The notes under the pieces are model-generated. The model searched no databases. It was not told the DNA's origin and saw only the letters and a program-made list of their open reading frames with translations. Source: Promethearchaeota archaeon (GTDB lineage Archaea > Asgardarchaeota > Lokiarchaeia > Sigyniarchaeales > SOKP01). Taken from it: DNA of 10,086 nt. Location of the stretch: the NCBI GenBank assembly GCA_016839765.1, contig JAEOTP010000062.1:1-10086 (forward strand), read 5' to 3'. Each line of letters opens with the position of its first letter. Position 1 is the first letter of the stretch. The position numbers and the translations under genes are program-made. Below, one piece after another: positions 2,447 through 7,057 of the stretch.

Positions 2447-2502
2447 AAAATATATTTTATAAATCTATATGGCACGGTTGCTGCCGTTAATCACTATATC
2501 TT
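2447..2502 (-). promoter_or_regulatory. Candidate eukaryote-like SECIS element in the 3' UTR of the HesB-like gene
   Basis: RNA UAUAG-UGAU-UAACGGCA-GCAACCG-UGCCAUAU-AGAU-UUAUA: UGAU/AGAU quartet with tandem G.A pairs, GGCA/UGCC upper stem, and AA 11 nt after GUGA. It is the only GC-rich patch in this intergenic region. The upper helix is imperfect. Confidence 0.4.
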
Positions 2503-2530: not shown

Positions 2531-2917
2531 TTAGCCATATACATTGGAATCTTTTTTCATGAACAAAATTCCTACTTTTTTTCCGTTAACTTCTCCAAGA
2601 GTAGCATCTATAATTACTAAAGGTTTGTCTTCTAATTCTAATATTATTTTTTTTTCAATGTACACTTCAATTTCAAGATCTTTATTTAAATTCTTATTAA
2701 TATTTGTGTTTTGCCATTCAATGAAATCATTATCCTTATAAACTTTGTATTTCTCAACTAACTCAACAACGTTTCCACAGAAACTCATCAATCACGATTC
2801 ATTCGAATAATAAAATAATACTACGACTAATTTTTCTGGATTTTTTTCCCTGTAAAGTTGGTTTTGTTCATGGATATAGTCTAATGCTTTATCTGAAAAT
2901 ATTAATTTAAATACATA
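2531..2917 (-). CDS. HesB/IscA-like small protein with in-frame UGA (candidate selenoprotein); start codon uncertain
   Basis: Frame reads YVFKLIFSDKALDYIHEQNQLYREKNPEKLVVVLFYYSNES-[TGA 2794-2792]-LMSFCGNVVELVEK...IEVYIEKKIILELEDKPLVIID...-TAA TAA. The pattern parallels HesB/IscA (ITLTxxAxxxI ... strand-GGC ... VKVFVD ... IDY). SD-like GGTGAT at 2922-2917. Confidence 0.6.
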
Positions 2918-3051
2918 TCACCAGAATAGTTTTTTTTTAGGTATCCTATTTTATAAGTTATAAATACAAAAACTAAAATATTTTGATAATAATTGCATTA
3001 TAAACTATTATTTTTATGTTCAAATAAATCTAAATCAAAATTGAAGTTATT
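2918..3051. promoter_or_regulatory. Divergent promoter region (HesB-like gene / P-type ATPase)
   Basis: AT-rich spacer with several TTATAA/TATAAA TATA-like boxes (about 2950-2965 and 2998-3004) between divergent genes. Confidence 0.4.
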
Positions 3052-5974: not shown

Positions 5975-7057
5975 TTAATGAGTTATTCTATTTTCTTTAA
6001 TATATTTGAAGAAAAGTCCTATTCCTACTATTTTAAAGGTATCTTGAACGTTAATGTTATGTAATGCGGAAGTCTCAATAAAAGAACATTTAAGTTCGTG
6101 AGCTTTATTTAAACCTTCTTCTTTGGAGATTTGTCGCTGTTCCTCTAAATCTATTTTATTTGCTATAAGTACGATTGGTAAATTACCTAATTCTTTCCGA
6201 GCATCTTTAAACCAAAAATTTATTGCATCATCAAAAGTTTCACGTCGAGTAACATCATAAACTACAAAAGCGCATTTAGCTCCTTTATAATATTCATGTC
6301 TAACACGTTTAAAGTACTCTTGTCCAGCAAAATCGTAGATAAGAAACTTTACAACATCTTCCTTAAATCCTTGGACAAAGTATTTCTGTGTTGAGATGGA
6401 AATACCTAAAGTTGGACGATAATCTATTATGACTTCTTTTTTCAAAAATCGATTAATAAGAGTAGTCTTTCCGACTGCTTTGGAACCTAACACGATAAGT
6501 TTAAATAATTTTTCTCCATTCTCTTCCTTTTTTATTTGATGTACTGCTTTTACTCCCTCAAATAAATTACTTGATTCTGTTAAAGCATACCTATCTAAAC
6601 TCACAGAAATATTTTCGTGAATTTTTAAATCTGGAATTTCTAAAGTATTATAGTTGAAATCAAAACTTTCTTCTAGCAATTGAGCAATTTTCTCAACAAC
6701 AAGATAAGCTATTGGAAATAGATTATTTAAGTCTATCTTATAGCTACAGACTAATAGTAAAATTGCTTCTGGGCCTGCTTCAAGATAAACTATTCTATGA
6801 TCTGAAGTTTCAAATGAACCACTTCCATAATGTCCTATTTTATACTCTAAAGATATTTTATCTAATAGGTTTTCGACTAAAGCAGTTAGTGCACCGTAAA
6901 TTTCATCAATTTCTTGTTCATCATCTATTTTTTTTTCTATATTGCCATACTTAGATATTAAAAGTCCCTGATTAGAATATAAAAAAGCAACTTCTATATC
7001 CTTTTGGGACTCTACAAAATTTTTTAGTAGAATTCCAATATTTTCTTCTTTAGTCAT
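5975..7057 (-). CDS. Roadblock/LC7 (MglB-like) domain fused to a C-terminal Rab-like small GTPase
   Basis: The N-terminal ~130 aa show a roadblock pattern (VAFLYSNQGLLIS...EIYGALTALV...IVYLEAGPEAILLLV). The C-terminal domain has G1 GSKAVGKTT, G2 YRPTLG, G3 DFAGQE, YYKGA, VVYDVT, G4 NKID and G5 ETSA. Confidence 0.92.
   Translation of the reverse strand: MTKEENIGILLKNFVESQKDIEVAFLYSNQGLLISKYGNIEKKIDDEQEIDEIYGALTALVENLLDKISLEYKIGHYGSGSFETSDHRIVYLEAGPEAILLLVCSYKIDLNNLFPIAYLVVEKIAQLLEESFDFNYNTLEIPDLKIHENISVSLDRYALTESSNLFEGVKAVHQIKKEENGEKLFKLIVLGSKAVGKTTLINRFLKKEVIIDYRPTLGISISTQKYFVQGFKEDVVKFLIYDFAGQEYFKRVRHEYYKGAKCAFVVYDVTRRETFDDAINFWFKDARKELGNLPIVLIANKIDLEEQRQISKEEGLNKAHELKCSFIETSALHNINVQDTFKIVGIGLFFKYIKENRITH

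Follow-up and report, generated by a model that had tools for sequence, protein, structure and literature searches.

Asgard SECIS elements have been proposed as a link between archaeal and eukaryotic selenocysteine decoding. The lokiSECIS form (Mariotti et al. 2016, PMC4989117), which corresponds to the Asgard eSECIS-like type I of Huang, Xiao and Zhang (2024, PMC11227280), comprises an AUGA core, a stem of 9 bp, a loop of 11 nt starting with A and ending with AG, and a GA or AA on the 3' side. A looser Asgard model tolerates up to two stem mismatches, a stem of 7-15 bp and a loop of 8-20 nt, and demands a 5' GA (PMC11227280). The last A of the 5' core is required by both published models, and the Asgard frhA elements vary the other member of the second core pair, giving AUGA_AA (PMC4989117, PMC11227280). 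No SBP2 is known in Asgard archaea (PMC4989117, PMC11227280). Seven Asgard (PMC11227280) and eleven archaeal (PMC13188914) selenoprotein families have been catalogued, and the published Asgard selenoproteins are limited to SelD, FrhA/VhuU, HdrA, FrhD and the Prx-like, AhpF-N-like and DsbA-like proteins (PMC11227280, PMC13188914). A further structure of relevance is the k-junction, in which the non-bulged strand of a kink turn carries an inserted third helix (Wang, Daldrop, Huang and Lilley 2014, PMC4005666); Huang et al. cite that paper only for the GA_AA pairing (PMC11227280).

The window analysed here is a stretch of 10,086 nucleotides (contig JAEOTP010000062.1 of assembly GCA_016839765.1, Promethearchaeota archaeon). 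We are highly confident that 76 nt of its minus strand, 2541-2466, constitute the SECIS of a hidden selenoprotein gene of 127 residues with a HesB/IscA fold, and that this SECIS is a three-way junction. The call is based on its position, fold and covariation, on its likeness to the genome's other SECIS, on the conserved UGA and on the Sec machinery of the genome. The features of the locus, from 5' to 3' of the transcript, are as follows.

2922-2917, minus strand: Shine-Dalgarno-like GGUGAU, 2 nt before the start position
2914-2534, minus strand: coding sequence of the HesB/IscA-fold selenoprotein, 127 residues, from orthologue alignment A5
2794-2792, minus strand: in-frame UGA in a conserved TGA column, putative selenocysteine codon 41
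2541-2534, minus strand: 5' strand of helix I, UAUAUGGC, the last codons Val-Tyr-Gly, pairing with 2473-2466 in the MFE fold
2533-2531, minus strand: stop UAA, unpaired in the junction
2530-2528, minus strand: 5' strand of the short helix below the kink, UAA (a second in-frame stop), pairing with UUA 2490-2488
2527-2523, minus strand: 5' side of the kink-turn-like core, with the loop A2527 A2526 U2525, then G2524 and U2523
2522-2514, minus strand: 5' strand of helix II, ACUUAUCUU, 9 bp with 2502-2493
2513-2503, minus strand: apical loop of 11 nt, GAAAAUUUUAG, with an A-rich start and an AG end
2502-2493, minus strand: 3' strand of helix II, AAGAUA-U-AGU, with U2496 bulged
2492-2491, minus strand: 3' GA of the core, G2492 opposite U2523 and A2491 opposite G2524
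2487-2474, minus strand: helix III, the third arm, ACGG - CAGCAA - CCGU
2473-2466, minus strand: 3' strand of helix I, GCCAUAUA, closing the three-way junction

The TGA at 2794-2792 is the sole interruption of the frame 2914-2534 on the minus strand. A TGA occupies the same column in the window and in all 23 orthologous loci taken from reference genomes, every one of them an Asgard (Promethearchaeota) MAG, and codon 41 lies in the motif S-x-x-[ST]-U-x-x-x-[FL]-C-G-N in the window and orthologues alike. The selenoprotein family was found in 57 of 400 genomes of the phylum and, in the window's own family-level group, in 53 of 134; among the genomes searched it was confined to Asgard archaea. Nearly all of the approximately 75 matches in the 57 genomes have exactly one TGA, the UGA being kept in about 70 copies. 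In orthologue comparisons, dN/dS is 0.10-0.22 both 5' and 3' of the UGA, and thus both parts are translated in one frame. Proteins in databases are either pieces of 85-86 residues that begin just past the TGA or forms of 123-127 residues with W in its place, and this W column is TGA in all genome loci read. Distant and tandem paralogues have Cys at the Sec column. It should be added that tandem arrays of two or three paralogues, with UGA copies and a Cys copy mixed, occur in several genera, and that the Cys copy (…SKQA-C-AGSY…) has neither the second Cys nor a SECIS.

The AlphaFold2 model of the 127-residue protein (pLDDT 81.8) found its best Foldseek matches in IscA and SufA (probability 1.00, TM 0.48-0.66); no Pfam or NCBIfam family was assigned to the protein, and a profile search with the family against PDB sequences returned nothing real. 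With the HesB-like selenoproteins of NCBIfam TIGR01911 the window protein shares small size, a predicted IscA/HesB-like fold and a Sec placed after the second strand. The motifs differ, being U-x4-C-G-N in the window and UxGP in TIGR01911, and only 1 of 22 family members matches the TIGR01911 model (E 0.057), so that, as far as the structural model goes, the likeness to the HesB-like family is one of predicted fold only. The IscA-fold selenoprotein family is absent from the published Asgard lists (PMC11227280, PMC13188914). A small gene that is annotated as 85 residues only is supported by its SECIS as representing a selenoprotein family, and gene finders ought to read through the UGA at 2794-2792.

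The core of the SECIS starts about 3-4 nt past the UAA stop (7 nt downstream of the first base of the stop) and 266 nt downstream of UGA codon 41. RNAfold returned the three-way junction both as MFE and as centroid structure of 2460-2546 on the minus strand (-20.6 kcal/mol, z -3.12), and none of 200 shuffled sequences folded as well. The UTR alone (2530-2430) gave z -0.19, a misleading value because the 5' strand of the closing helix sits in the coding sequence, where UAUAUGGC is matched by its exact complement GCCAUAUA at 2473-2466. Helix II consists of nine Watson-Crick pairs and one bulged U; the bulge is U, C or A in orthologues, or shifted by one, and more distant orthologues are without it. 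The apical loop has the length and pattern of the loops in this genome's hdrA, frhD and frhA SECIS. Within the core, G2524-A2491 makes the first and U2523-G2492 the second pair (2b.2n in kink-turn terms), the latter forming a wobble in the MFE structure. Of the helices, the short one below the kink is the weakest, and RNAfold leaves it out: its loop-adjacent pair is A-U in 24 of 24 sequences, and at the following position 11 have A-U, 6 have U-A and 7 have no pair.

The 3' UTRs of the orthologues are strongly conserved and carry AUGA-9-11-9(10)-GA at the same place, 0-20 nt past the stop. To assess covariation, 24 sequences were aligned with MAFFT (A2), and the 3' core G and A are invariant among them. 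RNAalifold predicted helix II on this alignment, with compensatory changes in 6 of 8 predicted pairs; 95.7% of helix II cells are paired. Helix III is paired in 91.7% of cells and also shows compensatory changes (one orthologue has CACUC/GAGUG), as does helix I, where for instance U-A alternates with C-G at one pair in 7 versus 11 sequences. Taken together, the four-helix structure is 88.3% paired with 14 pairs changed on both sides; among 500 shuffles none reached it on four of five measures and 7 did so on the fifth. Slid controls were 35-51% paired, and the covariation score of the four-helix structure was 0.241 versus 0.04-0.09 for slid partners. Realignment to a covariance model of the junction, R2, brought compensatory changes to all 24 pairs, although this alignment leans towards the model, and the covariation of helices I and III rests in part on alignments fitted in this way.

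Two covariance models were used. R1, for which six other SECIS of this genome served as input (hdrA, two frhD, frhA and two unknowns), has its best match in the window at 2528-2488 (17.2 bits, E 0.029 over 20 kb), a score that is significant for the window only, as the site was not listed in the search of the 3.3-Mb genome. In this match G2492 and A2491 fall on the GA/AA of the six input elements. In relatives, R1 found the orthologous site in most cases, at 15-34 bits. R2, built from the junction of the IscA-fold family only, scored this locus alone among 150 candidates in the whole genome. Furthermore, R2 matched the SECIS of hdrA, frhD-type and other genes at full length (E 3e-7 to 1e-2), where its matches reach 87% pairing and each of the four helices has compensatory changes; these model-based alignments, too, lean towards the model. 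Paralogue arrays served as a natural control. In the tandem arrays of three genomes, L090 (G185:C10), L091 (G190:C334) and L092 (G191:C84), and also at L021:2488-2574, each UGA copy is followed by an element including the GC hairpin; the Cys copy, placed among or next to these, has an unremarkable AT-rich 3' UTR and no element.

The part of the window element that departs from the rule is its 5' core, AUGU (2526-2523). Among the 24 sequences this core is AUGA in 20, AUGU in 3 (window, L003 and L006) and AUAA in one. With metagenome contigs L046 and L047, AUGU was seen in five independent assemblies, and it spans two sublineages separated by dS of about 0.7: L006 stands at dS 0.32 from the AUGA genome L004 and at dS 0.70 from the window. 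On these distances, AUGU would either have arisen twice or have been reverted. The AUGA orthologue L004, otherwise almost identical, scores 24.0 bits with R1 and the window 17.2, and hence the change from A to U costs about 7 bits. As an observation apart, the first sheared pair is without its G in the single AUAA core (L014:1879-1882). The gene and all other parts of this element are intact, and the AUAA may reflect a sequencing error, an element that is dead or one more change that is tolerated.

A second peculiarity lies at the start of the gene. The first codon of the window gene is GUA, not a canonical start, and therefore expression in the window strain is not assured. First codons across the family are ATG (5), TTG (9), GTG, CTG, ATA (2), GTA (window and L020) and other triplets, those other than ATG being common and including AUGA members. 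The first codon is always followed by UUU-AAA/AGA/AAG (window 2912-2922 on the minus strand, matching position in L003-L025), and GGUGAU stands at an equal distance from it in nearly all of the 24 orthologues. This pattern suggests near-cognate initiation driven by a strong Shine-Dalgarno sequence, or deliberately weak initiation, and the lack of a fixed start codon throughout the family argues against a sequencing error as the source of the missing ATG in the window.

Both peculiarities could be taken to mean that the SECIS, though descended from a working one, is crippled in the window strain by its U in place of A, with the GUA as a possible second cause, and that the gene is silent, decaying or produced only as an 85-residue C-terminal piece from the AUG at 2788. 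Indeed, none of the 35 other SECIS inspected lacks the core A, 20 of 24 orthologues have it, its loss is costly in the R1 score, the AUGU genomes begin with GTA, ATA and CTG where the two nearest AUGA orthologues have TTG, and an AUG lies two codons past the UGA. We nevertheless consider this unlikely. AUGU recurs in independent assemblies and in both sublineages, and L006 is closer to an AUGA genome than to the window; in comparisons that involve AUGU genomes omega is 0.10-0.17 upstream and about 0.17 downstream of the UGA; the reading frame and the UGA are intact; a U2523-G2492 wobble is possible; and unusual first codons are no privilege of the AUGU members. The AUGU element is likely, but unproven, to be functional, and the locus represents a natural test of the need for the second core pair.

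The preferred reading, a working SECIS in the form of a three-way junction, gains from the other elements of the genome, which were located by scanning for the pattern and then inspecting the frames upstream. SECIS of the Loki form follow hdrA, frhA, two genes of frhD type and two unknowns that contain a UGA. All six have AUGA, a 9-bp AT-rich stem, an 11-nt loop starting with A and ending with AG, and GA or AA; a GC-rich hairpin follows 2-4 nt past the 3' GA/AA in six of six, and closing flanks were traced in five. With R1, 12 other genomes of the genus yielded 3-10 elements apiece; eight genomes from other families of the order yielded none. Parsing of 35 SECIS from 13 genomes of the same genus gave G-[G/A]-AUGA, 9 bp, a loop of 11-12 nt, 9 bp and [G/A]A-C, and by eye each continues into a GC hairpin 2-4 nt past the core with a closing helix beyond, which, judging from the sequences, frequently draws on the gene's final codons. 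When the SECIS flanks were folded automatically by MFE, a noisy procedure, 27 of 34 showed the hairpin and 11 of 34 both helices, and the generality of the junction rests on inspection and on model-based alignment, which lean towards the model.

From these data we put forward, tentatively and at somewhat less than even confidence, that Lokiarchaeia SECIS are k-junction-like three-way junctions, and not simple kinked hairpins, in which the GC-rich third arm and the closing helix do work and the second sheared pair is dispensable, the last point because genes with an AUGU element stay under purifying selection. The third arm and closing helix would possibly serve as a docking site for the SECIS-binding factor that must stand in for SBP2 in Asgard archaea. 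Our literature search found no paper that joins SECIS with the k-junction or with an archaeal three-way junction.

Alternatively, the GC hairpin 2487-2474 with the closing helix may be a separate signal beside the SECIS, for the 3' end, for stability or for another protein. Eukaryotic SECIS are without such an arm, the text of both Asgard SECIS papers (PMC4989117, PMC11227280) gives only core, stem and loop (a published figure might still draw a third arm), and the flank folding returned both helices in a minority of cases. Against this, the hairpin sits at a set distance past the core GA/AA and inside the closing helix in 35 SECIS of 13 genomes by inspection, it covaries, it is lacking, like all of the element, past the Cys paralogue, and R2 recognises the SECIS of unrelated genes over its full length. 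A separate signal is, in our judgement, quite improbable, and we continue to treat the third arm as part of the SECIS.

The existence of an element in this area had been noticed in a sequence-only reading, which drew a eukaryote-like SECIS at 2447-2502 in the 3' UTR of the UGA-containing gene. It named the right kind of element, which is of Lokiarchaeia type, and the interval overlaps the 3' half of the SECIS; the register was wrong, however, with the core placed at 2494 and not at 2526, and the element was thereby drawn about 30 bases downstream of its true place. All letters that it listed are present (GUGA 2494-2491, 11 nt, AA 2479-2478, 12 nt, GA 2465-2464, as well as GGCA 2485-2482 and UGCC 2474-2471), and so is the GC-rich patch in the AT-rich spacer, but their assignments change. 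The GA (2492-2491) of the presumed 5' core GUGA is the 3' GA of the quartet and the remainder is the end of the stem; AAGAUAUA, read as lower helix, makes up the main stem's 3' strand; and GGCA/UGCC, read as upper stem, forms no helix and shows no covariation. The "GC island" is real and conserved, although it is made up of helix III (2487-2474) and the 3' strand of helix I (2473-2466), and the ACGG/CCGU hairpin, regarded as a competing alternative, turned out to be the conserved third arm.

The motif RTGA-N11-AA-N12-GA occurs at chance level (2 in the window versus 1.26 expected; 69 of 200 shuffles have at least 2). The earlier upper stem has three mismatches in 9 positions and a 7-nt loop and hence fails the loose Asgard model (PMC11227280), and the fold has -0.5 kcal/mol. 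Over the 24 orthologues the stem is paired in 60.5% of cells, equal to shuffled columns (276 of 500 reach it). Of the checks that the sequence-only reading had proposed, the covariance model of the genome's bona fide SECIS did not match its fold and matched the element at 2528-2488 instead, covariation among orthologous UTRs stayed at shuffle level for its stem and supported the four-helix junction, and conservation of the 3' UTR downstream of UGA-containing orthologues proved strong. That the earlier register works as drawn (GUGA 2494-2491, the stem up to GGCA/UGCC, AA in the 7-nt loop and GA 2465-2464) has in its favour that all letters are there and that a GUGA core is known from selD genes of some Asgard archaea (PMC11227280). 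It is scarcely credible, with a motif at chance, a failed loose model, next to no folding energy, no excess covariation, no support by R1 or R2, and bases that are all used by better-supported helices.

Components of the machinery for selenocysteine are encoded in the genome: the gene of tRNA-Sec (62.1 bits, G000:C34:4361-4449) is located directly upstream of SepSecS (377 bits, G000:C34:4669-5826) on the same strand, and selD has one in-frame TGA. In the fold, helix I closes the junction and is built with the last three codons of the gene; helix II rises from the kink-turn-like core after the three-base loop, with G2524 opposite A2491 and U2523 opposite G2492; and helix III forms a short GC hairpin in the non-bulged strand just past the core. 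We infer the binding partners, the kink geometry and the actual insertion of selenocysteine along the following lines. Directly or through an adaptor, this structure may bring the Sec-specific elongation factor and Sec-tRNA(Sec) to ribosomes at the UGA, whereby residue 41 would become selenocysteine and could form a U-x4-C redox pair with Cys46.

In the course of the analysis, at least ten selenoprotein genes were counted in the genome: hdrA, three frhD-type genes, frhA/vhuU, selD, the IscA-fold gene and three unknowns. The third frhD/mvhD-type gene, with two UGAs, has a SECIS with a 12-nt loop at G000:C35:19399-19439 on the plus strand (29.3 bits with R1). An unannotated gene at G000:C20:10493-10825 (plus strand) contains two adjacent in-frame UGAs (…DVGC-U-U-EK…) and ends 8 nt before a canonical Loki SECIS (C20:10837-10871); a Pfam search of its product gave no family. 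Likewise without a Pfam family is the product of G000:C64:40271-41239 (plus strand), of about 323 residues, with predicted membrane segments, an in-frame UGA (…GLGIA-U-DSF…) and a second UGA near the N-terminus in a U-E-S-C context; the Loki SECIS past this gene, C64:41237-41277, has the third hairpin and the closing helix and scores 25.4 bits with R1. A gene at G000:C12:3643-3837 (plus strand) encodes a membrane-anchored protein of only about 64 residues that contains GGG-U-PCPS, and has its SECIS at C12:3841-3875; from the sequence, the end of this gene appears to be a second UGA, 3 nt ahead of the SECIS core, in which case the first UGA would stand for Sec and the second for stop. It should also be mentioned that the window itself encodes, at 5975-7057 on the minus strand, a protein of 360 residues with a Ras/Rab-like GTPase domain in the C-terminal half (Pfam Ras, E 1e-42) preceded by an N-terminal extension, which is typical of Asgard genomes.

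Compared with type I eukaryotic SECIS, whose stem measures about 12-14 bp, the window element has a shorter stem of 9 bp, a conserved final G of the loop and a third helix. A permissive Rfam search of the whole window at E up to 10 gave no match to RF00031 (eukaryotic SECIS) or any other SECIS family and returned only weak, chance snoRNA-like matches. Together with the 35 others, the window element suggests a signal with a third arm that eukaryotic SECIS do not have. With the euryarchaeal SECIS of Methanococcales and Methanopyrus it shares the location in the 3' UTR of an archaeal selenoprotein gene and a short GC-rich helix, but it differs from them in having no GAA_A bulge, which in euryarchaeal elements separates a lower stem from three G-C pairs, the window having UAA-CGG and orthologues UAG, ACA or UCA. 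A euryarchaeal GAA_A reading of the GC hairpin was discarded for this reason, as inspection found no GAA 5' of CGG/CCG in the window or in orthologues.

The resemblance to the k-junction concerns secondary structure only and would comprise the three-base loop, the tandem non-canonical pairs that open one helix, the third helix in the non-bulged strand, together with a Watson-Crick pair flanking the loop (A-U in 24 of 24 here, G-C in six of six other SECIS). The window element differs from it by 1-3 bp between the kink and the branch point, by U and not A at position 2b, and by U.G as the second non-canonical pair.

Among the closest known forms is the lokiSECIS. As in that form, the window element lies in the 3' UTR right past the stop of a gene with a UGA that 24 of 24 sequences keep, its stem has 9 bp, its loop of 11 nt has an A-rich 5' part and an AG end, a 3' GA follows, it is orthologous to AUGA elements, and it was found by a model of this genome's hdrA, frhD and frhA elements. 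It differs in its 5' core, AUGU in place of AUGA with GU where GA is required, in the one-base bulge of the stem, and in serving a gene family absent from the published Asgard lists; moreover, its third hairpin and closing helix, seen also in the other inspected SECIS of the genus, go unmentioned in the text of the lokiSECIS papers. Published rules that demand a 5' GA core and describe only core, stem and loop miss this element despite its strong covariation and orthology; scanners for Asgard SECIS should allow core variants and stem bulges and may use the third helix as an extra signal. As far as can be judged from sequence comparison, the conserved features of the window element are those of the Loki type.
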